From Clostridia bacterium (GTDB taxonomy: Bacteria; Bacillota; Clostridia; Oscillospirales; SIG627), in assembly GCA_017467865.1 (NCBI GenBank), contig JAFUKG010000032.1, forward strand, positions 53,521 to 117,520: a stretch of DNA of 64,000 nucleotides. Direction: 5' to 3'. Below are positions 8,312 through 57,412 of the stretch, piece after piece (the stretch's first letter is position 1; each line of letters opens with the position of its first letter). The position numbers and the translations under genes are program-made. The notes beneath the pieces were generated by a model that saw only the letters and a program-made list of their open reading frames with translations, made no database searches and was not told the DNA's origin.

Positions 8312-8452
8312 AAATATTCTCCTTTGCTTTTTTAGTATTTTAACATAACTTCTTTTTCTTGTCAAACTGTTAAAAAGTTCACACAATGTACTTGTAAATA
8401 GAGCAAAAATATATTATAATGTATATAACTATTTTTGAAAGAAGGCATTCAA

Positions 8453-9004: not shown

Positions 9005-9006
9005 AA

Positions 9007-9977: not shown

Positions 9978-12734
9978 ATGGGAATTATTACAAAACTTTT
10001 CGGAACACACAGCGAAAGAGAAATAAAGAGAATAACCTCTCTTGTAAATAAAACAGAGGAACTCTCCGACCACTACTCGGGAATGACCGACGAGGAGCTG
10101 AAGGCACAGACTCAGCTTTTTAAGGACAGACTTGCAAAAGGTGAGACTCTCGACGATATTCTCCCTGAGGCATTTGCCACGGTCAGAGAAGCATCCACCA
10201 GAGTTCTCGGGAAGCGCCATTACAGAGTTCAGCTTATCGGCGGTATAATTATCCATCAGGGCAGAATTGCTGAAATGAGAACGGGTGAGGGTAAAACCCT
10301 TGTTGCCACGCTTCCCGCATACCTTAACGCTCTCACAGGCAAGGGTGTTCACATCGTCACAGTCAACGATTACCTTGCAAAGCGTGACAGCGAATGGATG
10401 GGTAAGATATATAACTTTCTCGGCCTTACGGTAGGACTTGTAGTTCACGGACAGTCCCCCGAGGAAAAGCATAAGGCTTATGACGCCGACATTACCTACG
10501 GCACTAACAACGAATTTGGCTTCGATTATCTGAGAGACAATCTTGTTATATATAAAGAGGACAGAGTGCAGAGAGGTCATAACTTCGCCATTGTGGACGA
10601 GGTGGACTCCATACTTATCGACGAAGCGAGAACTCCTCTTATCATTTCGGGTCAGGGAGAAAAGTCAACCGAGCTTTACGGCGTCGTAAACGCCTTTGCA
10701 AAGACTCTCAAATCCTTTAAGATAAAAGAGGCAAACGACAAGGAGATAGACGAAAACCTTGAAACCAACTACGACTATATCATAGACGAAAAGGCGAACA
10801 ACGCCACCCTTACCTCAAGAGGTATAAAGAAGGTGGAGGAGCAGTTTGGAATAGATAACTTTGCCGACCCCGAAAACGCGGCCCTCGCTCACCACGTAAA
10901 CCAAGCCATAAAGGCACTTGGCACCATGAAGCGCGACGTTGACTACGTTGTAAAGGATAATCAGGTAATCATTGTCGATGCCTTTACTGGCAGACTTATG
11001 CCCGGCAGACGCTATTCCGACGGACTTCATCAGGCAATAGAAGCAAAAGAAAACGTAAAGGTAGAGCGTGAGTCGAAAACCCTTGCTACTATCACCTTCC
11101 AGAACTTCTTCCGCCTTTATACAAAGCTTTCGGGTATGACGGGTACTGCCCTTACAGAAGAAGGTGAATTCCGTGAGATATATAACCTTGACGTTATAGT
11201 CATCCCCACCAATAAGCCCATGATAAGAAAGGATGCCGAGGACAAGGTATTCAAGAACAGCCGCGGCAAGATAAATGCCATTGTAGCCCAGATAGAAGAG
11301 TGCCACAAAAAGGGTCAGCCAGTCCTTGTGGGTACTGTCTCTATTGATAAATCCGAGGAGCTTTCAAAGATACTTCAGAAGCGCGGTATTCCCCACAACG
11401 TTCTTAACGCTAAATTCCACGAAAAGGAAGCAGAGATTATCGCACAGGCAGGAAAGTACGGCGCCGTTACCATTTCCACCAATATGGCAGGACGAGGCAC
11501 CGACATAATGCTTGGCGGTAACCCCGAGTACCTTGCAAAGACAAAGCTTCGTCAGGAGGGCTATTCCGAGGAGCTTATCGTTCTTGCAGATACTGTTACA
11601 GACACCGATAACGAAGAGATTATCGGGGTAAGAGCACGCTATAACGAGCTTGTTGCAGAGTTTGAGCGTGAAATTGCACCCGAGCGCGAAAAGGTGAGAG
11701 AAGCGGGAGGACTCTTTATTCTCGGCACCGAGCGCCACGAGTCAAGACGAATTGACAATCAGCTCCGAGGACGTGCAGGACGTCAGGGAGACAGCGGCGC
11801 GTCGGCATTCTATCTCTCTCTTGACGACGACCTTATGCGCCTTTTCGGAGGAGACAGAATAGTGGGTGTGGTTGACCGCCTCGGTCTTGAGGACGACCAG
11901 CCCATTGACGCCAGAATTTTATCAAACACAATAGAAAACGCACAAAAGCGCCTTGAGGGTCAGAACTTTGCCCGCCGACGCAACGTGCTTATGTACGATA
12001 ACGTAATGAGCGAGCAGAGAAACGTTATCTACAAGGAAAGAGGAGAGGTCCTTGACGGAATAGACCTGACCGATAAGATTAAGTCTATGATGCACTCTAT
12101 GATTGAGTCAAAGGTCAGAGAATGCATGAGAGGGGATACCCCCGACCAATGGCAGCTTGACGAGCTCAGACGAGCTTTTTTCGGACTCTTCACAACAGAT
12201 GCAGACTTCCGTGAAACGGGGGACGCTCTCGACGAGCTTTCCGCCGATAAGGTGACGCATGAGCTTTGTGAGCGTGCAGACAAGCTTTATGCGGAGAAGA
12301 CAGAGCTTCTCGGAGAAGAGGTTATGAGTGAGGCAGAGCGTGTTATACTGCTTCGCACCGTTGACCGCAAGTGGATGGCGCACATAGATGCTATGGACGC
12401 TCTTCAGAGCACTATAAGACTTCAGGCATACGGTCAGCGTGACCCCGTAAGAGAATATAAGATAGTAGGCTCGGATATGTTCGACGAAATGACCGAGGAA
12501 ATAAGATGCGACACCGTAAGAGGAATTCTGTCTGTACAGCCGAGAACCGAGATAAAGCGTGAAAAGGTTGCGAAGATTACAGGTGCATCCCACGGCGGCG
12601 ACGCATCCCCTGTGAAGAAAGCTCCCGTCAGAAAAGCCGAGAGCGAAAAGGTGGGACGAAACGACCCCTGCCCCTGCGGAAGCGGACTTAAATACAAGAA
12701 ATGCTGCGGCAAGAATATGGCAGACGGAGAATAG
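9978..12734 (+). CDS. secA: Preprotein translocase ATPase SecA
   Basis: [26 protein letters not shown] (Walker A), [19 protein letters not shown] and the C-terminal zinc finger [14 protein letters not shown] are all present. Confidence 0.97.
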
Positions 12735-12737
12735 AAA

Positions 12738-13985
12738 ATGAGATTTCCTCTTATATTTCTTGGACTTATATTTATATTTTCACCCGATATAACACTCTTC
12801 GATTTTCTCCCCGACGTGATAGGCTGGTTTTTTATAACCCTTGGACTTACCCCACTTGCAGATATTGAGCTGCGTGCCGAGGACGCGAAAAGGCTTTCTT
12901 TGAGAATGATGCTCGTGTCGGCAGTAAAGCTTGCCGTGTCGCTTTTCACCTTCCGCTTCGGTACGTCGGATATGCTCCTTGCTACCTTTGCCTACGGAAT
13001 TGTTGAAATTATAACTGTAATTCCCTTTGTTACAAATTTCTTTACCGCTCTCGATTATTCGGCAATGAGAATAACACCTTCTCTCAACTCCGATAAAGTA
13101 AGTGGTATTAAATGGTATATGTACGTTTTCTTCGTACTTAAAAACGTACTTGCCTTTCTGCCTGCAACGGTTGGACTTTTCGACACCGAGACTACGGGCA
13201 ATCTGTCGGCGGACACCTGGTTTGTGGACTTTGAAGCGGCTATGCGTGTCTTTATGGTATTTGCTTTTTTCCTGTCGGCGGTGATTTCTCTTGTCAGCGT
13301 GATTTACGCAGGACAGTTCTTTGTTTCTCTCATAAAGAATAAAGAGCTGATAGGGAATATGACGAAGCACCGTCGGGAAGAGGTACTGTCAAAAGAGAAC
13401 GTTATGACCGTGAAGAACACCTCTTTTGTACTTACGTTTTTCTTATCTGCTATGCTCTTCTTTTTCGACTTTTATATTGACGCCATAGACGTGCTTCCTA
13501 CCTTTGTGGGATTTTTCCTCGTTTTTGTTGCTTTCGTTTTTATGAAGAGGAGAATGAACGAAAGAACTACACTTCCCGCTATTCTTGCCTTTGCGGGCTT
13601 TACCGTTTCTCTCTTCTCCTTCATTTACAGACTCTATTGGGGAGGAAAGACGAATTTCGTTCTGACCTATACCTTTGGTTCAAAGCCCTTGACCTTGCCC
13701 CTCAGTATCGCCGAGGCGGTATTTACCGTGGCGGTAATAGTTATGATACTTAAATGGGCGGACAGCTTTAATAAAAAGTACACTAAATACACCTTGGAGG
13801 ATAACCTGACCTTACTTAAAATCGGGGCGGTTATAGAGGCGTTTTTCGGTGTAATGCTTTACGCCTTCCCATCCCTTAATACAACCTTTGTGTTCCCCTC
13901 CATTGTTTTCGGAATAGCTTATACGGCGCTTACAATAAACTTTTTCTTTAAATTAAAAAGACAGATATCAAAAGATATGAGATAA
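12738..13985 (+). CDS. Hypothetical polytopic membrane protein with an internal duplication
   Basis: 415 aa with roughly 10 hydrophobic segments. The motif FSPDITLFDFLPDVIGWFF near the N-terminus recurs as FFFDFYIDAIDVLPTFVGFF at about residue 240. The gene starts 4 nt after secA and ends 13 nt before asnB. Confidence 0.75.
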   Translation: MRFPLIFLGLIFIFSPDITLFDFLPDVIGWFFITLGLTPLADIELRAEDAKRLSLRMMLVSAVKLAVSLFTFRFGTSDMLLATFAYGIVEIITVIPFVTNFFTALDYSAMRITPSLNSDKVSGIKWYMYVFFVLKNVLAFLPATVGLFDTETTGNLSADTWFVDFEAAMRVFMVFAFFLSAVISLVSVIYAGQFFVSLIKNKELIGNMTKHRREEVLSKENVMTVKNTSFVLTFFLSAMLFFFDFYIDAIDVLPTFVGFFLVFVAFVFMKRRMNERTTLPAILAFAGFTVSLFSFIYRLYWGGKTNFVLTYTFGSKPLTLPLSIAEAVFTVAVIVMILKWADSFNKKYTKYTLEDNLTLLKIGAVIEAFFGVMLYAFPSLNTTFVFPSIVFGIAYTALTINFFFKLKRQISKDMR

Positions 13986-34775: not shown

Positions 34776-34885
34776 TTTTTTGAAATGCAGAATGCATAAT
34801 TGTGGTTGATTTTGCCTTAAGCAAAATCTTCCGTAATGGTGCTTGCAATTTTCGATTTATTACTCTAAAAAAAGGATTTACACAT

Positions 34886-35629
34886 ATGGAAAAAATCAAT
34901 ATAAGAGGTGTTCTTTTCGACAACGTGACGCCAAGCGAGGCGATAGAGGTTGCCGAAGGGTACATAGAGCGTGGAGAGCAGTGCGTTGTTTTCACTCCCA
35001 ATGCTGAGATAGTACAGATGGCAATAGAGGACGATAGCTTTCGTGACGTTATCAACTCTGCAGAGCTTGTCATTCCCGACGGCGCAGGAGTTGTCCTTGC
35101 TTCAAGGATACTTAAAAAGCCCCTTAAGGGCAAGGTTGCAGGCTGTGAGTTTGCCGAAAGTCTTGTAAAGGGCTCAGCCGATGGGAAATATAAGATTTTC
35201 TTCTATGGCTCAAAGCCCGCCACCGACGAGGGGATAAGCGTTGCCGACCTTGCCGACAGGAAGATGGGTGAGAAGTACGGCTTTAAGGCGGCAGGAACCT
35301 CCCACGGCTACGTGAAGCCCGAGGGATACGCCGAGCTCATAGAGAAGATAAATTCTTCGGGCGCCGACATACTTTTTGTCTGTCTCGGTGTTCCCATGCA
35401 GGAAAAATGGATATATCAGAACAGAGACAAGCTGAACGCAAAGCTTATCATAGGTCTTGGCGGTACTCTCGACGTCTTTGCAGGAACGGTGAAAAGAGCA
35501 CCGAGAGTATTCGTGAAATTAAACCTTGAATGGTTTTACCGTCTCATAAAGGAGCCTAAAAGGCTGGGACGCATGATGAAACTGCCCAAATTTATTTTCG
35601 GAACGCTTTTTTCAAAAAAGGAGAAGTAA
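34886..35629 (+). CDS. WecG/TagA/CpsF family glycosyltransferase
   Basis: The start is the ATG at 34886. VVFTPNAEIV, PDGAGVV and LGVPMQEKWI are typical of the family. Confidence 0.8.
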   Translation: MEKINIRGVLFDNVTPSEAIEVAEGYIERGEQCVVFTPNAEIVQMAIEDDSFRDVINSAELVIPDGAGVVLASRILKKPLKGKVAGCEFAESLVKGSADGKYKIFFYGSKPATDEGISVADLADRKMGEKYGFKAAGTSHGYVKPEGYAELIEKINSSGADILFVCLGVPMQEKWIYQNRDKLNAKLIIGLGGTLDVFAGTVKRAPRVFVKLNLEWFYRLIKEPKRLGRMMKLPKFIFGTLFSKKEK

Positions 35630-36301: not shown

Positions 36302-36335
36302 AAAAATCCTTGAAGAATTCTTCAAGGATTTTTTT
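36302..36335 (+). terminator. Intrinsic terminator ending the prfA-to-tmk gene string
   Basis: aaaaatccttgaagaattcttcaaggattttttt is a perfect 14-bp palindromic stem followed by a T-run. Confidence 0.8.
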
Positions 36336-36459
36336 ATTAATTTTTTGTTAATACCATTGTAAAAATACATATGAGAATATATAATTAATTTAGAAAATTT
36401 AAGGAACTTTTCAGGAAAAATTAAGTCTAAACAAAAAAGTGAAAAAGGAGGAGAGGAAA

Positions 36460-37338
36460 TTGAAGAAAAGAGACCTGAAAAAAATAGGACAGAGAGCGTA
36501 TTCATGGCTTTATATTCTGCCCGGTCTTATAGGTGTTTCGGTGTTCTACGTGCTCCCCTTCGGGTTTGTTATATACTACTCTCTTATTGATAATATTTCC
36601 ACCCGTAATTTCGTGGGTCTTGACAACTTCAAGGCACTCTTTCAGAACTCTGCCTTTCTCACCGCCTCAAAGAACACTCTCACCTTTTCACTGGTAACGG
36701 TTTTTTCGGCGGTTATATTCTCTCTTATTCTTGCCGTTATCCTTGACTCCAAGATACCGGGTAAAAGCAAATTCAGAACTATGTTCTTAAGTCCCCTTAT
36801 GGTGCCAACCGCCTCCATTATTCTCATATGGCAGGTAATGTTCAGCTTCAACGGCTCCTTCAATTCCTTTATCGAGCTTTTCGGACTTGAGCCCGTGGAT
36901 TGGATGAAGTCGGAGTACAGTCAGATAGTTGTAGCCCTCCTCTTCTTGTGGAAAAATCTCGGCTACAATATGATACTTTTTATGGCAGCCCTTTCCAATA
37001 TCCCCAAGGATCAGGTAGAGGCGGCAGAGGTAGACGGCGCAAACGCCCTTCAGCGCTTTTTTAAGATAAAACTCCGCTACATATCTCCTTCTCTCTTTTT
37101 CGTGCTACTTTTATCTCTTATAAACTCCTTTAAGATTTTCCGTGAGGTCTATCTTCTCACGGGTCAGTGGCCTTATGAGACGCTTTACTTCTTACAGCAC
37201 TTTATGAATAATACCTTCAAAAATCTTGACTACCCACGCCTTTCAGCGGCGGCAATTGTTATGTCGCTTTTCATTATAGTGATAATCGGTATAATATTTA
37301 TCCTTGAAGATAAGTTCGGAAAGGATGTGGAAGAATGA
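36460..37338 (+). CDS. Carbohydrate-type (CUT1, MalF-like) ABC transporter permease
   Basis: The EAA loop is QVEAAEVDGANALQRFFKIKL, and there are six TM segments. I prefer TTG 36460, 7 nt after AAGGAGGA. The track's GTG 36439 is the outer limit. Confidence 0.85.
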   Translation: MKKRDLKKIGQRAYSWLYILPGLIGVSVFYVLPFGFVIYYSLIDNISTRNFVGLDNFKALFQNSAFLTASKNTLTFSLVTVFSAVIFSLILAVILDSKIPGKSKFRTMFLSPLMVPTASIILIWQVMFSFNGSFNSFIELFGLEPVDWMKSEYSQIVVALLFLWKNLGYNMILFMAALSNIPKDQVEAAEVDGANALQRFFKIKLRYISPSLFFVLLLSLINSFKIFREVYLLTGQWPYETLYFLQHFMNNTFKNLDYPRLSAAAIVMSLFIIVIIGIIFILEDKFGKDVEE

Positions 37339-38237
37339 AAAGAAAAATAAGCCGTGCAAAGATACTGAAAAGAACGAGAATAACACTCTTCTTCATATGG
37401 GCGCTTATGTTTGCATTTATATTCATAATGCCCACGCTTTTCACATTTACCAATTCTTTTATGTCCGAAACCGAGCTCACCTCTACCTACGGCGCAGTAC
37501 TCGGCAACGTGTCAGGGGGCTCCTCCTATATGTCGGAGTCGGTAAAGCTAAAGCTTATACCCGATATGGTAAGCTTCAGACAGTATTTCACAGTACTTTT
37601 TCAGAGTCCCGAATATCTCTTGAAGTTTTGGAATTCTATGATACTTACGCTGCCTATTGTGGCAGGTCAGGTGTGTCTGGCGGCTTTGTCCTCCTACGGC
37701 TTTTACAGATACCGAGGCAAGGTGAAGAACGTTATATTTTTCGCATACATCGTAATAATGCTTATGCCCTATCAGGTTACCTTGGTTCCTAACTTCCTTG
37801 TTTCCGATATGCTTGGAATTATAGGCACCCGCTGGGCGGTAATACTTCCCGGACTTTTTGCACCTCTGTCGGTGTTCATACTCACCAAAAGCATGAGGCG
37901 CATTCCCGTGGCGGCAGTTGAAGCGGCAAGGCTTGACGGAGCGGGCGAATTTAAGATATTCCGCAAAATCTGTCTGCCCATGTGTAAAAACGCCCTTTAC
38001 TCCGTAGTAATTCTCACCTTTATAGATAACTGGAATATGGTTGAGCAGGTGCTCATACTCCTTGACAACCCCGAGCTTCAGCCACTCTCGGTATTCTTAT
38101 CCGAGATAAACACGGGGGAAGTGGGAGTTGCCTTTGCAGTAGCAACGATTTATATGATACCCCCCATACTTCTTTTCCTCCACGGAGAAGAAAGTCTTGT
38201 GGAAGGAATTACCTATCAAGGCAGTGTGAAAGGATAA
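37335..38237 (+). CDS. Carbohydrate-type (CUT1, MalG-like) ABC transporter permease
   Basis: The EAA loop is VEAARLDGAGEFKIFRKICLP. The start overlaps the upstream stop by 4 nt. Confidence 0.85.
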   Translation: MKRKISRAKILKRTRITLFFIWALMFAFIFIMPTLFTFTNSFMSETELTSTYGAVLGNVSGGSSYMSESVKLKLIPDMVSFRQYFTVLFQSPEYLLKFWNSMILTLPIVAGQVCLAALSSYGFYRYRGKVKNVIFFAYIVIMLMPYQVTLVPNFLVSDMLGIIGTRWAVILPGLFAPLSVFILTKSMRRIPVAAVEAARLDGAGEFKIFRKICLPMCKNALYSVVILTFIDNWNMVEQVLILLDNPELQPLSVFLSEINTGEVGVAFAVATIYMIPPILLFLHGEESLVEGITYQGSVKG

Positions 38238-38243
38238 ACGAAT

Positions 38244-40313
38244 ATGAAGACAAGAAAAGATTTAATAAAAAATATAGCAATTATATTCCTTGCGGTAATG
38301 CTTGTGCTTACCTTTTTCTCCAACACCATTCTCAACTGGTCACTGCCTCAGGTTTCGGGCAGATACACCGAGTACGGTGAAATAAAGACGGGAGTAAGAG
38401 GAAGCGGTCAGGTAGTGTCAAACCTTACCTACACCGAAACCGTCAAGGGAGACCGCAAGATAGAAGAGGTCTACGTGTCAAGAGGAAGTGTGGTGGAAGC
38501 AGGACAGACTCTCATGCTCCTCGGCCCCACCGACTCCGAAAAGGCGGAAAGCCTTGAGGCCGAGATTGCAACCCTTGAGGACGCATACAACAGAGCCCTT
38601 CTCTCTAAAACAGAGTATGACTACGAGGACGACGAATATCAGATAAAGATAGCCACCGAGGACCTGAATATAATCAAGGCAGAAAGAGCGGTGTACACCG
38701 ACGAATATATCGCAGGCATTAAGAAAAACGCCGAGGATAAAGAGAAGGCATACGAGGCGGAAAGCGAGCGTCTTGAAAGCCTTGAAGAGGAGCTTGAAGA
38801 GCTTTCCGAAAATTCATCCGACCCCGAAATAGTAGAGGCAAGAGAAAAGGTAGCTAAAGCACAAGAGCGTGTGGATATAGCAAAGGAAGCCCTTGAAAAG
38901 GCGGAAAAGGCACTTTCTGAGGTGAATAAGACCGACACGGGCTCACTCAACAGTCAGCTTGACTCTCTCTATGACTCATATGACAGAGCCAAAACAGAGC
39001 TTTCCTATTTAAAAGAGGACAATGCACACCTTATTAAAATAAGAGACGATAAAAAGTCGGCAGAAACCGCCCTCAACAAAGCTAAGACCGACTATGATAA
39101 AGCGGTAACAGACTACGGTGAGGACTCCGCCGAGGCTCTGACGGCAAAGGAGACTCTCGACAGTGCGCAGACCGCCTTCGACGAGGCAGAAAAGCTTTAT
39201 AACGAGAACGCCGAGGAAATAAAGACCGCCGAAAGAGCTATCGCTGCACAGGTAACAGAGGTTGACAACATCAGCTATGAGATATACTCTGTAAGAGCAG
39301 AGATTTCATCGGCTAATAAGGAAAACAAAGCCTACAACGATTATAAGAACACAGTTTCCATAAAGGAAAAGGCTCTTGAGAGCGAAGAGGCGGATTTGGA
39401 AGTGCTCGAAAAAGCACTGGAAGAGCTTGTAAAAACCGCCAACAAGGAGCTGACAGCTTCTATCAAGACCTCAAAGAAAGCTCTTGAGGACCTTGGCGAA
39501 GAAAAGGCAGAGGCAGAAGAAAAGCTTGCTGAGCTGGACACAGTAAAAACACTTGACGCCGAGATAAAGTCGGGTGAGCGCAGTCTTGAACAATTAGTGC
39601 GCGCCCTTGAAAAGAAAAAAGAAGCCGACAAAAAGGCGGCAGAGCTTGAAAATTTTGACAGAAACAAAGAGTATGCAGAAATTCAGAAGAAGAAGGCAGA
39701 GCTCGCTGAAATCAAGGGCGGCTCCAAGGAAGGTTATGAGCTGAAGGCTTCGAGAAGCGGTACCGTCACCGAGGTTAACTTCAGACCCGGCGAGGTAGCT
39801 ACCGACGGCGCGGCGGCGCTGACCGTAGAGGTGGTGGAAAGCGGATATACTCTTTCTTTCTCCGTTTCGGTGAACGAGGCAAGCAGACTCAAGGAAGGTG
39901 ACACCGCTACAGTTTCCGATACCTATTGGGGTCAAAGCGTGGGTGCAGTTCTTACAAAGATTACACCCGACCAAGGCGGTAAGACCAAGACCCTTACCTT
40001 TGAGTTATCTGGCAACGTGAACGCGGGTCAGACCCTTACACTCACCGTTGGTGAGCGTACAACGGGCTACTCCGCGGTTATCCCCAAGAACGCACTCCAC
40101 GAGGACTCAGAGGGCAAGTTTATCTATATCACAAAGACAAAGTCCACACCTCTCGGAGATAGATTTGTTGCAACCAGACTTCCCGTTACCGTTGCCGCAA
40201 GCGACGATAAGAACGTGGCTATCGCTACCGACGAAGCATATCTTTACGAGTACGTTATCACCTCATCCACCAAGCCCTTTGAAGAGGGCGGTTACGTAAG
40301 GCTGAGTGATTGA
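38244..40313 (+). CDS. HlyD/MacA-like membrane-fusion (periplasmic adaptor) protein with a very long coiled coil
   Basis: There is an N-terminal TM anchor. The split barrel-sandwich motifs are GEIKTGVRGSGQVVS..VSRGSVVEAGQTLMLL and ELKASRSGTVTEVNFRPGEVA. Between them lie about 400 residues of E/K/A-rich heptad-like sequence. The C-terminal beta-barrel/MP-domain-like part is SAVIPKNALHEDSEGKFIYI. Confidence 0.75.
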   Translation: MKTRKDLIKNIAIIFLAVMLVLTFFSNTILNWSLPQVSGRYTEYGEIKTGVRGSGQVVSNLTYTETVKGDRKIEEVYVSRGSVVEAGQTLMLLGPTDSEKAESLEAEIATLEDAYNRALLSKTEYDYEDDEYQIKIATEDLNIIKAERAVYTDEYIAGIKKNAEDKEKAYEAESERLESLEEELEELSENSSDPEIVEAREKVAKAQERVDIAKEALEKAEKALSEVNKTDTGSLNSQLDSLYDSYDRAKTELSYLKEDNAHLIKIRDDKKSAETALNKAKTDYDKAVTDYGEDSAEALTAKETLDSAQTAFDEAEKLYNENAEEIKTAERAIAAQVTEVDNISYEIYSVRAEISSANKENKAYNDYKNTVSIKEKALESEEADLEVLEKALEELVKTANKELTASIKTSKKALEDLGEEKAEAEEKLAELDTVKTLDAEIKSGERSLEQLVRALEKKKEADKKAAELENFDRNKEYAEIQKKKAELAEIKGGSKEGYELKASRSGTVTEVNFRPGEVATDGAAALTVEVVESGYTLSFSVSVNEASRLKEGDTATVSDTYWGQSVGAVLTKITPDQGGKTKTLTFELSGNVNAGQTLTLTVGERTTGYSAVIPKNALHEDSEGKFIYITKTKSTPLGDRFVATRLPVTVAASDDKNVAIATDEAYLYEYVITSSTKPFEEGGYVRLSD

Positions 40314-41214
40314 TATGAAAGGACTCATTAAGCTTATCCTTTCTGCCCTTATATTTATAGTCCTTCTCACATGGACTCTTATCTTTATCGGCGAGTCGAG
40401 GGATATCCCGCCCTTCGGTGAGGATTACGCCACTATAAGGCTTTTTGACCCAGACGGCTTCAGCTCCGCTGAGATAAGCGCTATTCGCTTCACCGCCGAC
40501 AGCGTCAGCGAGAGCACTCCCGACACACAGCGTCTGTGGTGCGACGCCTATTCTCGCTTTGAAACGGCAAGTGTCAATAACGATAACGGAAAAAGCACCG
40601 AGAGTGCCTGCGTCGTTACGGGTGGAAATTGGTTCTTGTTCCATAATCTTGACTTTCTTCACGGCTGGTACTACTCTGACACCGACCTGAATTTTGACAG
40701 AGTGGTAATCGACGAAAGACTTGCCTTTCAGCTTTTCGGCAGCAGTAATTGCGAGGGAATGAGAGTCTACGTGTCAGGCACGCCCTGCTACGTTGCAGGC
40801 GTTGTTGCCCTTGACGAAAGCGACGCCTACAAGGCACAGCTTGAAGAAAAGCCCATGATTTATATCCCCGAAAATATTGCCGAAAAGATATTCGGCATGA
40901 AGGACTTTGATTACTACGAAATATGTATGCAGAATCCCGTGGACTCCCACGCCTTGAATTCTCTGAAAGAGGTCACCGAGGGCAAGACGGCAATTGACGT
41001 CACCTCCCGATATAGCCTCAAGAATACCTTCTCGAATTTAAAAAGCTTTACCTCCCGCTCTATCATCACCGAGGAAGAGCCCCTGCCCTTCTGGGAAAAT
41101 GACGACAGACAAAGAGAGGATACTCTTGTGATACTTGAAGTCCTTGTGGCTGTAAGCTTTGTATTTTTCGTGTTAAACCTTATTCTATTTATTATCGAAA
41201 GGAAAAAAAGATGA
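40306..41214 (+). CDS. Membrane protein with a MacB-type periplasmic core-like domain between two TM helices (no FtsX bundle)
   Basis: The order is TM1 (LILSALIFIVLLTWTLIFI), an extracytoplasmic domain with RVVIDERLAFQLFGSSNCEGMRVYVSGTPCYVAGVV (like the MacB_PCD N-terminal motif), then one C-terminal TM (LVILEVLVAVSFVFFVLNLILFII). The start is GTG 40306 or ATG 40315, overlapping the upstream stop. Confidence 0.65.
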   Translation: MIDMKGLIKLILSALIFIVLLTWTLIFIGESRDIPPFGEDYATIRLFDPDGFSSAEISAIRFTADSVSESTPDTQRLWCDAYSRFETASVNNDNGKSTESACVVTGGNWFLFHNLDFLHGWYYSDTDLNFDRVVIDERLAFQLFGSSNCEGMRVYVSGTPCYVAGVVALDESDAYKAQLEEKPMIYIPENIAEKIFGMKDFDYYEICMQNPVDSHALNSLKEVTEGKTAIDVTSRYSLKNTFSNLKSFTSRSIITEEEPLPFWENDDRQREDTLVILEVLVAVSFVFFVLNLILFIIERKKR

Positions 41215-43652
41215 AAAAAATTCTCACCCTTGTCCTTGCTCTTTTCACCCTTTTTGCTCTTGCATCCTGCGGGCCCAAGGAAGAAAAGAAGCCCGAAAAG
41301 GTAGCACTTGAAAACGTTTATATGGCAAAGAAGCTCCCCACCCCCGACGGTGTAGACCTCTATAATATTATGATGTCGGGTGACAGAGCCTTCTTCAACG
41401 GCTCGAAGGAGGTTAAAACCACCGATGATGACGGCAACGAAATCTCCGACTGGTACGATTGCGTATATACTGCCAACGCCGACCTGACAGATATCCGCGA
41501 GCTTTACACCTTTAAGGGTGAGTGGAACTACGACGAGACAACAGGCACCGATACGGGCAAATACCTCAACGGCTATAACGCAGGTGCCAACGGTAAGCTC
41601 TGGCTCTCCTTTACGGAATATAAGAGCTGGTACGACAGTGACACCGAACAGTATAACTATGAGGAGAATACTGTCTTGAAGCTCCTCGAAGAGGACGGAA
41701 GCTTTTCAAGAGAAATAAGCATCACCCCTCTTCTTAAATCACGCCCCGAGTTTGCAGGGGATAGCTATTCCACCTATATGGGTCAGCTTGCCGAAACCTC
41801 CGACGGAAAGCTCGTTATGCTCATCGGTAACAAATATATCTTCGTTATCGACAAGGACGCGAACCCATTAAGCCTTACCGAGCTCCCTCAGAATAAATCC
41901 CCGAACGACGTTGCCCTCATTAATGACGATACCCTCAGACTTTCCGCTTGGGATTGGTCGGGAGAGGAAAGCAAGGTAGAGATTATCGACTTCTCTATTT
42001 CAAAGGCAGAATTCAAAACCATTGACACCATCTCCTCCTACCACAGCGTGCAGATGGCTGACGACGGAACGGTTTACATAAACGATTACAGCACTATATC
42101 AAGATACGATTTCGATAAAAAAGAAGAAGTACCCCTTCTTGACTTTATTAACTCCGATATCAACTCCGACAGACTTTCAAGTTTCTACCCCGCAGGCAAC
42201 GACGAGTTCTATACCTTTGAATACGATGCCGATTGGGAAGGCCGTCAGCTTCTTCACCTTACCCCCGCCGCAAAGGGCGAGGTGGTTGAAAAGTATATTA
42301 TCACCCTTGCAGCAAATGCCCTTGACTCTCAGCTTAAGAGCATGATTATCGACTATAACCGCTCATCAAAGGATTACAGAATTGCAGTTAAGGTTTACGG
42401 TTGGGAAGAAGCGGACACCGAGCGCTTTGACCTCGACCTTCTTTCTGGTGCCACCCCCGATATTGTTTGTATTGACAGCTCACTCAGTCTTACAAAGTAC
42501 GCCACTAAGGGAATATTTGCCGACCTCGGTGCTTACCTTGACTCCGATGACGAGATAAATAGAGATACACTTCTCCCTAACGTTCTGAAGGCTTGTGAGA
42601 CAAACGGCAAGATTTACAGCCTTCCCGTTAACTTTGCTGTAAGAAGCCTTGTTACAAAGAAGAGTCTTGTAGGGGATAAGACCTCTCTTACCTTTGACGA
42701 CGTGAAGTCTATCCTTTCTGTTTATCCCGGCGCTGTCTTTATGAGAGAGACAGACCGCGAACAGCTTATGACGGGATTTTTACCTGTGATACTTGAAGAA
42801 TATATCGACTATAAGAACGGAAAATCCAACTTCTCCGACGGAACATTTAAGTCCTTCCTTGAATTTGCAAAAGCCTTCCCCGCAAAGATTGACTACGATA
42901 CCTACTATAACGATATCGACTGGGAAGCATATGAGAACGACTTTAAGGAAAACCGAGTTATCGCAAACTCTGTTTACCTTTCAAGCTTCAATTCTATTGA
43001 ATGGCAGGAAGAACAGTTCGGTGAAGAGATTGTCTGCATCGGCTATCCCACGAATAAAGGCGAACCCCACGCCCTCAACCTCAATACTCAGTTTGCTATT
43101 GGCGCAAAGTCTGTTTATAAAGAGCAGGCTTGGGACTTTATGAAGATGCTTCTCGCCAAGGAATACCAGACCGAGTACACTTGGACCTTCCCTATAAATA
43201 AAGAAGCCTTTGAAGAAATGAAGGAAAAGGAAATTACAAGTACTAAGTCTCGCTACGAAAAAGAGGCTATGGAGGACGATGAATACTTCGATGATGACTT
43301 CATCATGGACGACGATATGGTAGTTATGCCCCGTGAAGAGGTTGCAGAGGTTGTTGTTGAAACCTCAGAGGAGCTTGTAGCATCTGATAAGGTAGTAACA
43401 CTGCCCGAAACACCAATCGCGCCCGTCGAGGATGAAGAATTCACCTCTGAAAAGCTTGAGAGAATGCTCGGATATATCGACAGTATCTATAATATCGCCA
43501 CAACTACCACCCGTCTTGCCCGCTACAACGACCCCGTCCTCGACATAATCACCTCCGACGTCGGCGCCTACTTCGACTCCAAGAAATCCGCCGAGGAAAC
43601 CTGCAAGACGATAGAGAGTAGGGTGAACCTTTATCTCGCCGAAAACAGTTAA
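41211..43652 (+). CDS. Large (813 aa) lipoprotein: N-terminal extension of unknown fold, family-1 extracellular solute-binding domain, and an acidic C-terminal region
   Basis: The lipobox is LFALASCG. The central part (ITLAANALDSQLKSMIIDYNRSSKDYRIAVKVYGWEE..GATPDIVCIDS..NGKIYSLPVNFAV) is SBP_bac_1-like. About 340 N-terminal residues are rich in D/N/Y/W beta-type sequence. The start overlaps the upstream stop (ATGA). Confidence 0.75.
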   Translation: MKKILTLVLALFTLFALASCGPKEEKKPEKVALENVYMAKKLPTPDGVDLYNIMMSGDRAFFNGSKEVKTTDDDGNEISDWYDCVYTANADLTDIRELYTFKGEWNYDETTGTDTGKYLNGYNAGANGKLWLSFTEYKSWYDSDTEQYNYEENTVLKLLEEDGSFSREISITPLLKSRPEFAGDSYSTYMGQLAETSDGKLVMLIGNKYIFVIDKDANPLSLTELPQNKSPNDVALINDDTLRLSAWDWSGEESKVEIIDFSISKAEFKTIDTISSYHSVQMADDGTVYINDYSTISRYDFDKKEEVPLLDFINSDINSDRLSSFYPAGNDEFYTFEYDADWEGRQLLHLTPAAKGEVVEKYIITLAANALDSQLKSMIIDYNRSSKDYRIAVKVYGWEEADTERFDLDLLSGATPDIVCIDSSLSLTKYATKGIFADLGAYLDSDDEINRDTLLPNVLKACETNGKIYSLPVNFAVRSLVTKKSLVGDKTSLTFDDVKSILSVYPGAVFMRETDREQLMTGFLPVILEEYIDYKNGKSNFSDGTFKSFLEFAKAFPAKIDYDTYYNDIDWEAYENDFKENRVIANSVYLSSFNSIEWQEEQFGEEIVCIGYPTNKGEPHALNLNTQFAIGAKSVYKEQAWDFMKMLLAKEYQTEYTWTFPINKEAFEEMKEKEITSTKSRYEKEAMEDDEYFDDDFIMDDDMVVMPREEVAEVVVETSEELVASDKVVTLPETPIAPVEDEEFTSEKLERMLGYIDSIYNIATTTTRLARYNDPVLDIITSDVGAYFDSKKSAEETCKTIESRVNLYLAENS

Positions 43653-43654
43653 CC

Positions 43655-44000
43655 GTTTCTTAGAAATTTCGTGTAATACTTCGTCAACTTCAAAAACCCC
43701 GTCGTCACCTTACGGACAGTAAGGTTTCCTCGGGGTTTTCTTGTTTCCTTGTCTTACGCAAAATTTCGTCGAAACTGTGATAGTGTAAATTTGTTATTCG
43801 TCTTTTTCCGTTCTGCTTCGCTACTTGTTCGACTCGGCTTCGTTGACTTACATTTAGTAAGCCTTCCTCGCCTCGCTCACGTGCACTCGCATAACGAAAA
43901 AATACTTTGAAACTGTGATAGTATAAGGAAAAAGAGCCGTTATCGGCTCTTTTTCCTCGTCTTACGCAAAATTTCGTCGAAACTATGTTTCTTAGAAATT
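43655..44000. repeat. Direct-repeat-structured non-coding segment
   Basis: The 14-mer gtttcttagaaatt occurs at 43655-43668 and 43987-44000. A 33-mer cctYgtcttacgcaaaatttcgtcgaaactRtg occurs at 43747-43779 and 43955-43987 (31/33 identical), each time directly after a terminator-like hairpin. gaaactgtgatagtRtaa occurs at 43771-43788 and 43909-43926. Confidence 0.8.
43692..43745 (+). terminator. Intrinsic terminator ending the ABC/MFP operon
   Basis: aaaaaccccg(43692-43701)..cggggtttt(43731-43739), with an inner hairpin accttac-ggacag-taaggt, followed by ttttcttgttt. Confidence 0.7.
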
Positions 44001-54766: not shown

Positions 54767-54795
54767 AAAAACGGCGGAGAAATCCGCCGTTTTTT
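54766..54795. terminator. Bidirectional intrinsic terminator between convergent genes
   Basis: aaaaaacggcgga-gaaa-tccgccgtttttt. Confidence 0.8.
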
Positions 54796-56734
54796 AATGT
54801 TTATATACTTTTGCTATGATTAAACCTATTATGAGAACTGAAAAAGATACTATAAGCCATAGCCCTTCACCGCTTTGGGAATTATTCATTTCATCAGCAT
54901 TCACGTTAAAGCTATTAAAACTGCGCTTTTGTGTCTGTTCTCTATCTGTGAAGGGTTGTTTTGTGCTTTGCTCAGGATCTTCGGTGTCGGAGTTTTTTTC
55001 AAAGCTGGGTTCCACCCCGATATTTTCCATATCTTGTGAGACGTTGGCGTTTTGCGGTGAGGTGAAATCTTTACTTTTATCAAAATTGTTTTCTGTGCTC
55101 TCGGTATTCTTATTTCTATCGTTAAGACCCATACCCATAGAGCCCATGTTTGAAATATTTAACGAAGAAGCGTCCGAGTAGTTGGTGTTGTTTGTAGTTT
55201 CACCGTTTTCAAGCTGTAAGGCGATGCTGTTGGAACGAAGAGAGCAGAATTGACGCAGAGCCTCTACACCGTTTTCAAATTCTTCGTAGGTGTAGAATGC
55301 TGTGGGATCCCTTTCTACGTATGATTTGATAAGGTTATACGCATCGTTGATTATGCCCTGAACGTCAACTGTGTTCAGAAATTCAGTAAAATACCTATGA
55401 TATTGCTGGGTATATTCTTCGTTTTGTACTATCCAGTTCCACATGGGGCGATCCTCGCCGTTTGCGTTGGAAACGGGAGAATCTATGGGAGTATTGACTG
55501 TGCTTTGACCGTTACCGCCTTGGAAGGTGCCATATGCAAGATTGTAATCCCAAGGAATCATGGCCATTTTTCCGTCTTCCTCATACAGATAGTAGTTATG
55601 AATCATTGAGCCTGTGTAGCTATCACCGTTGCAAACGTAGTTGTGAACAACGAAATAGCGCATGACCTTTTCGACGTCTACAACAGATTCTATCTGATCG
55701 CCCTCAGATAGCTTTTTCAGGGACTCAATGAGCCTTATTTGGTCGGCTTCTGTAACGTCGGTTTTGGCGTTGTTCCAAATGTTTGAGTAGCTGGAGATAT
55801 TATCGTCTACGTATTGAAGTTTTACGTCTGAAGAGCCCATCCCTCCAAATCCGCCTTTTCCTCCGAAGGAAAATCTATCGCCGTTTTCAGAATTGGACTC
55901 TCCTTGTGTCATATCGGGTATCTGCGGTGCATTGCCCTGCATCTGAGAGGGATCGAAGCTACTCATAGCAGGCACGTTTGCGCTGAACGTTGAGGAAGGG
56001 TCAAAGCTTTCTCTGTCCGGCATAGGCATACCTTGCTCGGAGTCGATGGCTGGCTTTTCGTTATTTACAAAATCTTCTATGTTAAAGTCCTTGCCGTTGC
56101 CCCGTCCACCGCCAAACCCTGTGCTGTCGGGCTTATACAGTTCTCCGTAGCTTGTTCCATAATTACGTTCAAGAAAGCTGTCCTCAACACCTTCCACTGC
56201 AAGATACAGTCCCCAATCCTCACCGTTGACGGTGATGTACGCAAAACTGCAAAGGGGAGATGCGGCATCAAACTCGTTCATCATGGTGTAGGTCAGATAG
56301 TCCTTCATCATGGTGGCGTCTTGTATCAAATTATTGAGAGCCAGCTTGTCAAGTCCGTGATAGGTGATAGAGCTGTCATAGTGGTCGAATTCCACCTTGA
56401 AGCTGTATCGGTCACTGTTCATAGAGGCGACGTTGGAAAGAGAAGTGTTGCCTTTACCGCGTATGGCGACGTTTTTATATGCCTCACCGTCTATCACTAC
56501 GGTGGCGGTGTAGTATTCCTCGCTTGACGCGTTATCAATAAACTCTTCCCAATTGTTCATTACAATATCAATGGTGTGCACCCTTGTATTGTCAAACAGA
56601 CGGTTTTCGTATCCCATAGTACTTGCCATAACCTCAATGCCAAGAGCCGGACCGTTCATAAACAAAATGGTGATGATTAGTATTATGGCTGTGACAGACC
56701 ACGCTATCTTGTCAAAATACTTACTTTCTGACAT
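54794..56734 (-). CDS. CotH kinase-family protein, membrane anchored at both ends
   Basis: HTIDIVMNNWEEF..YYTATVVIDGEAYKNVAIRGKGNTS..RYSFKVEFDHYD..LDKLALNNLIQDATMMKDYL.. is typical of CotH. There is an N-terminal signal-anchor, a low-complexity region, and a C-terminal TM helix (LWLIVSFSVLIIGLIIAKVY). Confidence 0.85.
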   Translation of the reverse strand: MSESKYFDKIAWSVTAIILIITILFMNGPALGIEVMASTMGYENRLFDNTRVHTIDIVMNNWEEFIDNASSEEYYTATVVIDGEAYKNVAIRGKGNTSLSNVASMNSDRYSFKVEFDHYDSSITYHGLDKLALNNLIQDATMMKDYLTYTMMNEFDAASPLCSFAYITVNGEDWGLYLAVEGVEDSFLERNYGTSYGELYKPDSTGFGGGRGNGKDFNIEDFVNNEKPAIDSEQGMPMPDRESFDPSSTFSANVPAMSSFDPSQMQGNAPQIPDMTQGESNSENGDRFSFGGKGGFGGMGSSDVKLQYVDDNISSYSNIWNNAKTDVTEADQIRLIESLKKLSEGDQIESVVDVEKVMRYFVVHNYVCNGDSYTGSMIHNYYLYEEDGKMAMIPWDYNLAYGTFQGGNGQSTVNTPIDSPVSNANGEDRPMWNWIVQNEEYTQQYHRYFTEFLNTVDVQGIINDAYNLIKSYVERDPTAFYTYEEFENGVEALRQFCSLRSNSIALQLENGETTNNTNYSDASSLNISNMGSMGMGLNDRNKNTESTENNFDKSKDFTSPQNANVSQDMENIGVEPSFEKNSDTEDPEQSTKQPFTDREQTQKRSFNSFNVNADEMNNSQSGEGLWLIVSFSVLIIGLIIAKVYKH

Positions 56735-56740
56735 ATGCTT

Positions 56741-57412
56741 TTACCCCATATAATCGCCGTTATAGGAGACGATTACTGCACTGTTTACTCCCGTCATTTC
56801 GGAAAGAACGTTGATGAAATCTGTGTCGTCTTTCTTCAGGCGGACTTCGATATTTATTTCAATAGCGCCCTTGACGGCAGATTTGCTCTTGAGTGTTGTG
56901 CGGGCTGTATTTTTTTCTATAAAGTCTCTTGCCTTGACTTCCGCATCGTGATTTTCACAGCTCAGCACTATCATGTAAGGTCGGGTATGGGATTTCTTAT
57001 TTACAAAAATAAGAAGGATTATACCGATTGATACGCTTCCGATTATAGCAAGAGGAATCATACCTGCTGCCAGGATAATACCTACACCGATAGACCAAAA
57101 TAAAAATGCAATATCAAGGGGCTCCTTAATGGCAGTACGGAAACGAACGATAGAGAGTGCACCCACCATACCCAACGAGAGAACCACGTTGGAGGTTACG
57201 GCGAGAATGACGATAGACGTAATCATAGTAAGAGCGATGAGCGTAGTTCCGAAGCCTGCGGAATACATCACACCGCGGTAGGTTTTCTTATAAACGAGGA
57301 AGATGAAAAGACCGATGCCGAAGGATAGCACAACGGTCAGCAGCATATCAAGTAGATTGACGGAGGATACGTTTTCGAGAAAGCTTGATTTAAAAATATC
57401 GTTAAAATTCAT
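56741..57412 (-). CDS. DUF4956 domain membrane protein
   Basis: ALSIVRFRTAIKEPLDIAFLFWSIGVGI is the hallmark motif. There are four to five TM segments followed by a C-terminal soluble domain. Confidence 0.8.
   Translation of the reverse strand: MNFNDIFKSSFLENVSSVNLLDMLLTVVLSFGIGLFIFLVYKKTYRGVMYSAGFGTTLIALTMITSIVILAVTSNVVLSLGMVGALSIVRFRTAIKEPLDIAFLFWSIGVGIILAAGMIPLAIIGSVSIGIILLIFVNKKSHTRPYMIVLSCENHDAEVKARDFIEKNTARTTLKSKSAVKGAIEINIEVRLKKDDTDFINVLSEMTGVNSAVIVSYNGDYMG

Follow-up and report, generated by a model that had tools for sequence, protein, structure and literature searches.

A gene set joining a sugar-type ABC importer to two efflux-pump-type proteins suggests a new cell-wall-spanning uptake machine in gut Clostridia

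A five-gene locus and its boundaries

The locus lies in a window of 64 kb, the whole stretch of DNA analysed here, from Clostridia bacterium GCA_017467865.1 (contig JAFUKG010000032.1, positions 53,521-117,520 of the forward strand). Positions 36460-43652 of the + strand hold five co-directional, translationally coupled open reading frames, g1 to g5, flanked by two terminators (Table 1). ORF calls and terminator stems agree with the gene layout and boundaries given in a first-pass annotation of this DNA. The upstream terminator is the 5' limit of the five-gene unit. At the 3' end, none of 200 shuffled sequences was equally stable and the U-run UUUUCUUGUUU follows directly. g1 may start at GTG 36439 or at TTG 36460; the TTG is preceded by AGGAGG at 7 nt and yields a 292 aa protein matching its homologues in length. 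g4 can likewise start at GTG 40306 or ATG 40315, the latter giving a 299-aa protein identical to P0001. Adjacent genes overlap by 4 nt at g1/g2 (ATGA) and at g4/g5, with a 6-nt gap at g2/g3 and, depending on the g4 start, an 8-nt overlap or a 1-nt gap at g3/g4.

Table 1. Features of the locus; nucleotide positions refer to the window, residues to the protein named
Feature	Position	Strand	Description
Upstream terminator of thymidylate kinase gene	36302-36333	+	14-bp stem, then T-run
Promoter candidate, sigma-70-like	36357-36385	+	TTGTAA-17-TATAAT, 10/12 consensus matches, by consensus only
g1	36460-37338	+	MalF/UgpA/SugA-type CUT1 permease, 292 aa
g2	37335-38237	+	MalG/UgpE/SugB-type CUT1 permease, 300 aa
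g3	38244-40313	+	MacA/YknX-type membrane-fusion protein (MFP), 689 aa
g3, N-terminal TM			Invariant motif LTFFSNTIxNxSLxxV
g3, lipoyl half 1	~residues 72-93
g3, helical coiled-coil insert	~residues 96-495		~400 residues between lipoyl halves
g3, lipoyl half 2 and beta-barrel	residues 500-603
g3, membrane-proximal domain	~residues 610-689
g4	40315-41214	+	PCD-only protein, 299 aa: TM1, MacB-type periplasmic core domain (PCD), stalk, TM2
g5	41211-43652	+	Binding lipoprotein, 813 aa
g5, signal peptide and lipobox	Cys20
g5, N-terminal all-beta domain	~residues 37-352		~28 strands, ~330 aa
g5, family-1 sugar-binding fold	residues 361-689 and 745-812
g5, disordered acidic insert	residues 690-742		19 D/E in 53 residues
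Intrinsic terminator, 3' end of unit	43693-43739	+	MFE -25 kcal/mol, z = -4.97

Importer-type components

g1 and g2 are CUT1 permeases with EAA loops, as had been proposed. g1 matches the BPD_transp_1 profile (3e-17) and UgpA (1.8e-36), with SugA (2.3e-22) and MalF as PDB matches, and its EAA loop begins at residue 187 (nt 37018). g2 matches BPD_transp_1 (1e-12), GlcU and UgpE, with SugB (1.3e-15) and AlgM2 in the PDB and an EAA loop from residue 196 (nt 37920); AlgM1 is also found among the PDB matches of the pair. Between loci the module permeases keep 51-63% identity, while the PCD, MFP and solute-binding protein (SBP) drop to 24-47%. For comparison, g1/g2 share only 25-26% identity with an unrelated CUT1 pair from locus L019. 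Judged by these identities, the module permeases are a subfamily of their own, and an unusually conserved one.

A motif search found no ABC ATPase motif anywhere in the 64-kb window, hence the ATPase for g1-g5 would be supplied in trans. In eight relatives (L002, L020, L023, L049, L051, L069, L096, L098) a MalK-type gene (ABC_tran+OB_MalK+TOBE_2) lies directly 3' of the PCD gene, with an overlap of 8 nt in L002 and of 20 nt in both L020 and L023. These relatives support the earlier suggestion of a MalK/MsmK-type ATPase in trans. The sequences indicate that the ATPase of the module is of this importer type, encoded in cis in some relatives and elsewhere in the present genome.

The C-terminal half of g5 is an oligosaccharide-type binding protein. 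It matches SBP_bac_1 (4e-12, residues 374-653) and, in the PDB, CbpC (7x0o, 7.5e-10), and Foldseek with the AF2 model (pLDDT 83) returned CbpC, a sophoro-oligosaccharide-binding protein and YesO. The predicted family-1 solute-binding domain is thus confirmed, but the acidic stretch described as a C-terminal tail is an internal insert, with three further helices of the binding-protein fold after it. The lipobox reads LASC and its cysteine is invariant. The N-terminal all-beta domain, which carries the conserved motif LDWINSDINSDR at residues 308-321, has no Pfam match and no PDB sequence match. It is a new domain, probably a 7-bladed propeller.

Exporter-type components

g3 belongs to the MFP family, matching HlyD_3 (1.7e-9, residues 500-603), Biotin_lipoyl_2 (residues 72-91), HlyD_D23, RND_mfp and DevB. 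The best PDB matches of its family profile are MacA (4dk1, 3e-7), HlyD (8dck) and MacA (5nik). The most conserved MFP segment in the family alignment is the TM/juxtamembrane motif, which points to a specific intramembrane contact. The ~400-residue coiled coil noted earlier holds for g3 in this window, but not as a fixed length, as the helical insert ranges from ~180 to ~575 residues across the family. MFP domain order, a heptad scan and coiled-coil PDB matches suggest that the insert folds as a hairpin.

g4 matches MacB_PCD (2.1e-7, above the gathering score) and has two TM segments only. The HMM search gave no FtsX match, and FtsX TM3-4, an NBD and a coupling helix are all missing. Its family profile finds YknZ (5f9q, 1.1e-4) and MacB (5lil) in the PDB. 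With the AF2 model (pLDDT 91.5), the best 30 Foldseek matches are all type VII ABC PCDs, YknZ being first (4.8e-11), and the PCD and TM1-2 of LolC/LolE also match significantly (E ~1e-7). A motif, P-[YF]-W-E-N-x-x-R-x-x-E-D, is conserved at the top of the TM2 stalk. Both HMM and fold comparison therefore leave g3 as an MFP and g4 as a MacB-PCD fold held between two TMs, in line with the first-pass annotation.

The PCD-only family comprises 679 representatives (50% identity) at E<=1e-30. The best 150 of these are 300-560 aa long, except for the 1089-aa P0164, an in-frame PCD::SBP gene. P0164 retains a lipoprotein signal peptide and lipobox at the junction, and its product could be cut into two proteins. 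In P0066 and P0142 the PCD is fused to a HAD phosphatase (PCD::HAD), and these fusions locate the C-terminus of g4 at the cytoplasmic exit.

Conservation across related loci

The neighbourhood survey covered 104 related loci, the first 25 obtained through 14 independent protein or pattern look-ups and pooled with 80 metagenome loci. Throughout the first 25, the full set is present wherever the contig permits. In all 66 informative loci the MFP gene immediately precedes the PCD gene, and the order permease-permease-MFP-PCD is kept in 57 of 58, the sole exception being a split ORF. Of 37 loci, 36 carry a large SBP, often in 2-3 copies; its gene may come first, last, at both ends or in tandem around the fixed core. 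Flanking genes vary from locus to locus. The neighbourhood comparison had been set beforehand as the test that could overturn the reading of the five genes as one unit, and across ~100 loci they stay together. The combination of importer, adaptor and PCD is a conserved unit and a chance fusion is excluded.

The gene set is widespread in gut Clostridia and undescribed, invariably pairing an ordinary sugar-type importer with two proteins of kinds not normally known outside drug-efflux pumps; a literature search found no description of a CUT1 importer combined with an MFP and a PCD-only protein. L094 offers an internal contrast: there, the module is followed closely by a canonical ABC_tran/HlyD/MacB_PCD+FtsX trio. 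In most loci the neighbours are housekeeping genes, and no glycoside hydrolase or sugar regulator lies close by. Such surroundings are unusual for loci that serve nutrient glycans and count against the uptake system proposed below.

Relation to characterised ABC systems

The exporter-type pair resembles MacAB-TolC of Gram-negatives and YknXYZ of Bacillus subtilis. g3 has the same MFP order (TM, lipoyl, helical hairpin, lipoyl, beta-barrel, membrane-proximal domain), its family homologues bear Pfam BSH_YknX and YknX_C, and g4 retains the MacB/YknZ PCD between TM1 and TM2. However, g4 lacks the FtsX TM3-4, NBD and coupling helix of these systems, and the cluster has neither a MacB-type ATPase nor an outer-membrane partner. 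The MacA hairpin is several times shorter than the 180-575-residue insert of the g3 family. Furthermore, g3/g4 are genetically partnered with a type I importer that uses a MalK-type ATPase.

The importer half shares with MalFGK2-MalE, LpqY-SugABC and other CUT1 systems two six-helix BPD_transp_1 permeases with EAA loops, a family-1 sugar-binding fold and, in relatives, a MalK-type ATPase with OB and TOBE domains. An ATPase gene missing from the locus is common in Firmicutes CUT1 systems, which use shared MsmK/MsmX-type ATPases. The module differs in its two obligatory extra membrane proteins (MFP and PCD-only), in the ~800 aa g5 with its beta domain and acidic insert, and in its separate, unusually conserved permeases. 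Sphingomonas sp. A1 has a cell-surface 'pit', an envelope structure in which polymer is concentrated ahead of uptake by an ABC importer. Its alginate importer AlgM1M2SS-AlgQ1/Q2 is likewise CUT1-type with paired binding proteins, but is Gram-negative, has a pit of unrelated proteins, and has no MFP or PCD component.

FtsEX, with EnvC, PcsB or CwlO, resembles the module in that an extracytoplasmic PCD/ECD touches a coiled-coil partner. In LolCDE the PCD touches a lipoprotein, and LolC/E match g4 in structure. Unlike the module, both come with a dedicated ATPase (FtsE or LolD) and a TMD complete with all four helices, and neither uses a type I importer or solute-binding protein.

A proposed uptake system and its alternatives

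The reading we favour, if tentatively, is that the genes of the cluster together specify a single multi-subunit ABC uptake system whose architecture is undescribed, a carbohydrate importer carrying a motor-less scaffold derived from MacA/MacB. Its core would be a type I, MalFGK2-like CUT1 importer in which g1 and g2 pair as a heterodimer, served by a MalK/MsmK-type ATPase and by at least one large g5 lipoprotein as receptor. The accessory pair would stem from a YknX/YknZ (MacA/MacB)-type exporter, of which g4 retains TM1-PCD-TM2 and g3 is the matching adaptor. On the membrane's outer face, g3 and g4 probably re-form the MacA ring/MacB-PCD interface without the MacB motor, docked sideways onto the conserved permeases through the invariant g3 TM motif and the g4 helices. 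Taken as antiparallel hairpins, g3 inserts of ~180-575 residues would extend 13-42 nm (~30 nm for this g3) into the thick wall or right through it. Acting as a scaffold or funnel, this projection may catch bulky glycan or steer it to the tethered propeller-SBP receptor, from which g1/g2 would take it over and import it at the expense of ATP. Oligosaccharides can pass through porous peptidoglycan, so it is not evident why a conduit would be needed. The ~threefold variation in insert length speaks against a fixed docking partner, and wall thickness accounts for it only loosely. An envelope-spanning assembly of this kind had been suggested earlier; its conserved unit, the families and folds of g3/g4 and a MalK/MsmK-type ATPase in trans are supported, while its physical assembly and wall-spanning role stay conjectural, as does the idea that adaptor and PCD protein place the binding protein across the wall or pass conformational changes on to it.

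An unlikely alternative is that the MalFGK2-type unit is chiefly a motor, whose ATP-driven rocking reaches the PCD and adaptor by way of the g4 TM1/TM2 stalk. The extracytoplasmic work done could be expulsion or extraction of a membrane-active compound or lipid, as in MacB, YknXYZ, YbbAP and LolCDE, or control of a wall enzyme, as by FtsEX through coiled-coil partners, with the large binding protein a sensor or cargo receiver rather than a nutrient receptor. The fold of g4 is that of mechanotransmission ABC proteins, g3/g4 are nearest to YknX/YknZ, and the neighbourhoods are housekeeping rather than catabolic. The extreme conservation of the permeases and the MFP TM motif would also be expected at a force-transmitting interface. 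However, g4 has neither a coupling helix nor a cytoplasmic domain, hence there is no known force route through it, and to our knowledge all characterised EAA-loop, SBP-dependent type I systems are importers. The SBPs also duplicate and diverge quickly, like nutrient receptors, and their fold is nearest to oligosaccharide binders.

Equally doubtful is a role for g4, aided by the g3 ring, as a Lol-like holder of the g5 lipid anchor or N-terminal linker. It would thereby keep a single large receptor, or several, at the importer, and the coiled coil would be no conduit but a cage or spacer. The LolC/LolE match, the lipobox kept in P0164, the invariant Cys20 and the near-constant, often multiplied SBP gene all fit such tethering. 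Against this, ordinary Gram-positive SBP lipoproteins do without a holder, and the long coiled coil and the MFP requirement are left unexplained.

Far less probable than either, and close to refuted despite the exporter association of the g3 and g4 families, is that a sugar importer merely travels with an independent, degenerate MacAB-like pair that is non-functional or served by an unlinked FtsX-type permease/ATPase, given strict co-occurrence across ~100 loci with differing flanks and shifting SBP position, start/stop codon overlaps between importer and adaptor/PCD genes, translational coupling of the MalK-type gene to the PCD gene where relatives have one, the PCD::SBP and PCD::HAD fusions, a cluster free of FtsX or MacB-type ATPase genes, and strongly conserved g4 motifs that speak against decay.

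A conserved importer and adaptor gene set

Five genes of the window encode two CUT1 permeases (g1, g2), a membrane-fusion protein (MFP; g3, 689 aa), a protein reduced to a MacB-type periplasmic core domain (PCD; g4), and a large solute-binding protein (SBP; g5, 813 aa). The best-supported reading of this unit is a single ABC uptake system, an importer with an exporter-derived envelope module. Its parts belong to known families, and the system fits none. Textbooks associate MFPs and MacB-type periplasmic domains with export and mechanotransmission, and SBP-dependent permeases with EAA loops are hallmarks of import. A conserved gene set which hard-wires both contradicts the usual partnership rules and presents a testable new architecture.

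The coordinates and boundaries proposed in the first-pass annotation, five head-to-tail plus-strand genes with terminators on both sides, proved correct. Neighbouring genes overlap by 4 nt at g1/g2 and g4/g5, and at g2/g3 and g3/g4 they overlap or are spaced by only a few bases. An AGGAGG lies 7 nt 5' of the TTG start of g1, making GTG 36439 the less likely start, while GTG 40306 is a possible alternative start for g4.

Features of the five-gene unit, its boundaries, and one related fusion gene (window positions unless a locus is named)
Feature	Position	Strand	Remarks
g1, permease	36460-37338	+	TTG start at 36460; 292 aa, as in homologues
g2, permease	37335-38237	+	
g3, MFP	38244-40313	+	
g4, PCD-only protein	40315-41214	+	299 aa; same sequence as database protein P0001
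g5, SBP lipoprotein	41211-43652	+	
Terminator of thymidylate kinase gene	36302-36333		Upstream boundary of the unit
Promoter-like TTGTAA-17-TATAAT	36357-36385		
Downstream terminator, strong	43693-43739		Folds at -25 kcal/mol, z = -4.97
g3 TM/juxtamembrane motif LTFFSNTI(M/L)NxSLxxV	38301-38354		N-terminal, g3 residues 20-37
g5 conserved motif LDWINSDINSDR	42132-42173		g5 residues 308-321; closes the beta domain
g5 disordered acidic insert	43278-43436		g5 residues 690-742; 19 D/E and 2 K/R in 53 residues; pLDDT < 50
36-nt direct repeat TTTCCTYGTCTTACGCAAAATTTCGTCGAAACTRTG, three copies	43744-43987		100%, 67% and 94% identity
P0164, in-frame PCD::SBP gene	L019 10001-13270		1089 aa; GCA_054272195.1

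Related loci were first collected from PCD homologues 27–82% identical, two SBP homologues, and one genome scan. The same gene set was found in these look-ups wherever the contig allowed, with different flanking genes each time. The genome scan, run over contigs with the PCD alignment, gave only 10 close relatives, all from MAGs, with no cultured host among them; a metagenome scan added at least another 447, from which 80 loci were taken. All 104 loci were scored with component-specific HMMs. Wherever there is room for it (66/66 loci), the MFP gene directly precedes the PCD gene, and the order permease-permease-MFP-PCD is kept in 57 of 58; in the remaining one the MFP is divided between two ORFs. 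Of the 37 loci covered in full, 36 include a large SBP gene in the cluster. Its position varies (at the start, at the end, at both ends, or in tandem), and the other four genes are never rearranged. Neighbourhood conservation had been named in the first-pass annotation as a means of refuting the unit, which survives this comparison, and a chance fusion of two operons is rejected on the same statistics. The association of importer and adaptor/PCD genes is confirmed as real, conserved, and abundant.

Where hosts are named, they are Eubacteriales, Oscillospiraceae, Ruminococcaceae, and Clostridia MAGs, and several contigs of the metagenome scan are labelled human gut. The PCD-only family comprises 679 cluster representatives (50% identity) at E ≤ 1e-30. 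The gene set exists at the scale of hundreds of such clusters, mostly from gut Clostridia/Oscillospiraceae and including human-gut contigs. Its proteins carry generic database names ('ABC transporter permease', 'extracellular solute-binding protein', 'hypothetical protein'), and these, probably along with 'efflux adaptor', would wrongly imply an efflux pump beside a sugar transporter.

Permeases and the energy source

Both permeases match BPD_transp_1 (Pfam, 3e-17 for g1 and 1e-12 for g2) and have the EAAxxxG loop, at residue 187 of g1 and residue 196 of g2. Profile matches assign g1 to UgpA/MalF and g2 to GlcU/UgpE/MalG, and the closest solved relatives in the PDB are SugA/SugB, MalF/MalG, and AlgM1/M2, all in agreement with their earlier description as canonical EAA-loop type I importer permeases. 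The unit has the permease and receptor features that define a CUT1 importer, a cognate family-1 SBP encoded with the permeases among them, and the window lacks an ATPase for it. By sequence identity, the module permeases form a distinct subfamily: they remain 51–63% identical to g1/g2 in lineages where the PCD, MFP, and SBP fall to 24–47%, and an ordinary CUT1 pair in the related locus L019 is only 25–26% identical.

ABC ATPase motif scans across the 64 kb window found none. In eight related loci a MalK-type ATPase gene (ABC_tran+OB_MalK+TOBE_2) lies directly 3' of the PCD gene; the two genes overlap over 8 nt in L002 and over 20 nt in both L020 and L023. This supports the earlier idea of an MsmK-like ATPase encoded in trans, and the coupling of a MalK-type gene to the PCD gene in relatives indicates that the adaptor/PCD pair is encoded with an importer-type energy source. 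An alternative reading, in which the importer acts as a motor for MacB-like extracytoplasmic work, is judged unlikely. In L020 and L023, which represent a lineage with the ATPase in cis, a divergent two-component system (HisKA/HAMP kinase and OmpR-type regulator, 7757-9761 in both) is found directly 5' of the operon. A Cache-GGDEF protein gene follows the operon in L019.

The PCD-only protein

g4 matches Pfam MacB_PCD above the gathering score, and a profile of its family retrieves YknZ and MacB from the PDB. Its AF2 model (pLDDT 91.5) consists of TM1 (4-31), an alpha/beta domain, and a long helix (262-301) forming a stalk and TM2. The best 30 Foldseek matches of this model are all PCDs of type VII ABC systems, including YknZ (4.8e-11), MacB, Spr0694-0695, YbbP, LolC/E, and YtrF. 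The model thus predicts a periplasmic core domain (Porter + Sabre) between TM1 and TM2. MacB-type transporters have an FtsX bundle and a cognate ATPase domain (NBD), whereas g4 lacks both of these defining features. It has two TM helices only, ends in 'ERKKR' straight after TM2, has no PF02687 match to indicate an FtsX bundle or coupling helix, and has no cytoplasmic domain; no NBD is present in g4 or in the window. Pfam, AF2, and Foldseek accordingly agree with the earlier view of a two-TM MacB PCD without FtsX bundle or NBD. The contrast is visible within the same kind of genome, as L094 carries a canonical MacB-type trio just downstream of the module (10092-13711), with ABC_tran (238 aa), HlyD MFP (546 aa), and MacB_PCD+FtsX (418 aa) proteins in which the FtsX bundle and NBD absent from g4 are present.

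A decaying MacB pseudogene is rejected in view of the large family with invariant motifs, and so is a Wzz/Wzc-type co-polymerase, such Foldseek matches having E > 0.07 and probability ≤ 0.08. With LolC/E among its structural matches, g4 might act as a Lol-like holder for the lipoprotein receptor. This role is doubtful, and it would be compatible with the main model of a single uptake system.

The best 150 of the 679 family members are 300–560 aa with the full TM1-PCD-TM2 profile, except P0164, in which the PCD is joined in frame to an SBP. The junction retains a lipoprotein signal peptide (LTGC lipobox), and P0164 may therefore be processed into two proteins. In L019 another SBP gene, of 743 aa, stands separately upstream. 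Owing to this cleavable signal peptide, P0164 was downgraded from a strong Rosetta-stone fusion and is taken as supportive, not decisive, for a putative PCD-SBP link. Three other homologues, P0066 (L022 8052-9707), P0142, and P0063, have a HAD-IA phosphatase appended at their C-terminus, on the cytoplasmic side; among NCBIfam models this domain is nearest to epoxide-hydrolase-N-terminal-like phosphatase and glucose-1-phosphatase. Such a fusion could hint at phosphorylation of the imported compound or of its first product.

The adaptor

g3 consists of one N-terminal TM helix, a Biotin_lipoyl_2 match at residues 72-91, and a C-terminal membrane-proximal region, with HlyD_3 and HlyD_D23 matches inside residues 449-603 and an RND_mfp match at 1.7e-12. 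A phmmer search of the PDB with g3 alone returned no match; a profile of 12 family members found MacA, HlyD, EmrA, LipC, and BesA as the best. Residues 96-495, between the lipoyl halves, appear to be helical, having few Gly/Pro and a heptad pattern, and also draw SMC, myosin, and tropomyosin matches with the family profile. The predicted split lipoyl domain, helical hairpin, and beta-barrel are those of an MFP, as had been proposed, the hairpin being read from MFP domain order in the sequence alone.

MFPs elsewhere have exporter partners, whereas the constant partners of this MFP gene are CUT1 permeases (~100 loci). No exporter-type permease or ATPase is found in the module cluster at any of these loci, and in this g3 departs from its family, whose partners are ABC type VII/T1SS, RND, or MFS exporters. 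In a tripartite efflux pump or type I secretion system, a TolC-like outer-membrane factor docks on the tips of the adaptor hairpins; no outer-membrane-factor family appears in the precomputed Pfam lists of genes in the looked-up loci. The hosts (Eubacteriales, Oscillospiraceae, Clostridia MAGs) are presumably monoderm.

In an alignment of 12 MFP sequences with 27–67% identity, the most conserved segment is the N-terminal TM/juxtamembrane motif, with 13 invariant positions. A C-terminal motif, KS(S/T)PLG(N/D)R(Y/F)(V/I)A, is near-invariant. MFP membrane anchors are usually poorly conserved; unlike these, the anchor of g3 is conserved, which suggests a specific intramembrane contact. The least conserved stretch is the helical insert, which is hypervariable in sequence and length (~183–434 residues in 31 distinct cases, median ~345, with ~575 in the MFP of L040). 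If it forms an antiparallel hairpin, its arms would be ~13–42 nm long, and ~30 nm in the window, at 0.148 nm per residue. The predicted length is of the order of the Gram-positive wall, and the hairpins of MacA and HlyD are much shorter. The variability in length argues against a fixed docking partner and fits a projection tracking the envelope, or an exposed, diversifying one.

The binding lipoprotein

g5 is a lipoprotein with an invariant Cys20, matching SBP_bac_1 (4e-12) and, in the PDB, CbpC (7.5e-10). In the AF2 model (pLDDT 83) an all-beta domain of ~28 strands occupies residues 37-352, followed by a family-1 binding-protein fold at residues 361-689 and 745-812. The top Foldseek matches are all CUT1 sugar binders, and the binding half resembles binders of cellodextrin, sophoro-oligosaccharide, rhamnogalacturonan, and cyclo-oligosaccharides. 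The first-pass annotation placed an acidic tail at the C-terminus of g5; the acidic stretch is instead an insert within the C-terminal helical part of the fold, which resumes after it, and is partly conserved in close homologues.

The beta domain is labelled a propeller because of its ~28 predicted strands, with no significant sequence match: Pfam gives only sub-threshold propeller-repeat matches (SBBP, Reg_prop, Kelch), and a profile of the domain finds nothing significant in the PDB. The motif closing this domain, of the form (L/F)(D/N)(W/F)(I/V)(N/S)SDINSDR, is kept in all clades of large binding proteins, and the D-x-N-x-D pattern within it is similar to a calcium-binding loop. The SBPs evolve rapidly and frequently occur as duplicates, as is usual for nutrient receptors.

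Proposed mechanism

That adaptor, PCD protein, and importer form one functional unit is very probable. The contrary reading, in which two independent systems merely travel together, is highly improbable. With somewhat more confidence than doubt, the single unit can be regarded as a putative importer of carbohydrate, in which g1/g2 and a MalK/MsmK-type ATPase would translocate a carbohydrate-like substrate delivered by the binding half of g5. g3 and g4, which descend from a YknX/YknZ-type exporter, would rebuild a motor-less MacA-ring/MacB-PCD assembly, possibly anchored to the permeases through the conserved TM motif of g3 and the helices of g4. The coiled coil of g3 may then extend into the wall and serve as a funnel or scaffold in capture and receptor positioning. 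The first-pass interpretation is supported in part, as to the single unit and the ATPase in trans; a wall-spanning conduit or scaffold for capture is a tentative assignment. More speculative still is a new class of monoderm ABC uptake machine, integrating a MalFGK2-type importer with a motor-less MacA/MacB-derived chamber; equally speculative within it is a 13–42 nm coiled-coil tube that would cross the peptidoglycan and bring large glycans, or some other bulky substrate, from outside the wall to a tethered propeller-SBP receptor.

Full-text literature searches found no account of a type I importer accompanied by an MFP or a PCD-only protein; nor is there one in a review of bacterial glycoside transporters from 2026, a structural census of B. 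subtilis ABC systems from 2024, or a review on adaptor proteins from 2015. The gene set bears on substrate capture by thick-walled gut anaerobes, on the possibility of a type I importer with additional envelope-spanning parts, and on the role of MFPs in bacteria without an outer membrane, which is a long-standing puzzle. The new class of uptake machine, if real, would be the Gram-positive functional counterpart of envelope-spanning uptake systems such as SusCD or TonB-dependent importers, and in it an MFP would serve import for the first time.

Genomic setting

The neighbours of the unit in the window are M18 and U32 peptidases, a WecG/TagA transferase, tmk, and mfd, and at other loci ribosomal, dcw, uvrC, and dpaAB genes. 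Most loci lie among housekeeping genes, with glycoside hydrolases or sugar regulators mostly absent, a setting unusual for glycan-utilisation loci. The WecG/TagA-family glycosyltransferase gene (34802-35629; wall-polymer linkage-unit synthesis) is two genes upstream of the unit and is not conserved as a neighbour at the other loci. A gene for a CotH kinase-family protein (646 aa) adjoins that for a DUF4956 protein (223 aa) on the minus strand at 54794-57412; a CotH gene is also near the module in L014, probably by coincidence. Rfam gave no credible match for the ~0.9 kb non-coding stretch 3' of g5, in which copies 1 and 3 of the 36-nt repeat are each preceded by a hairpin.
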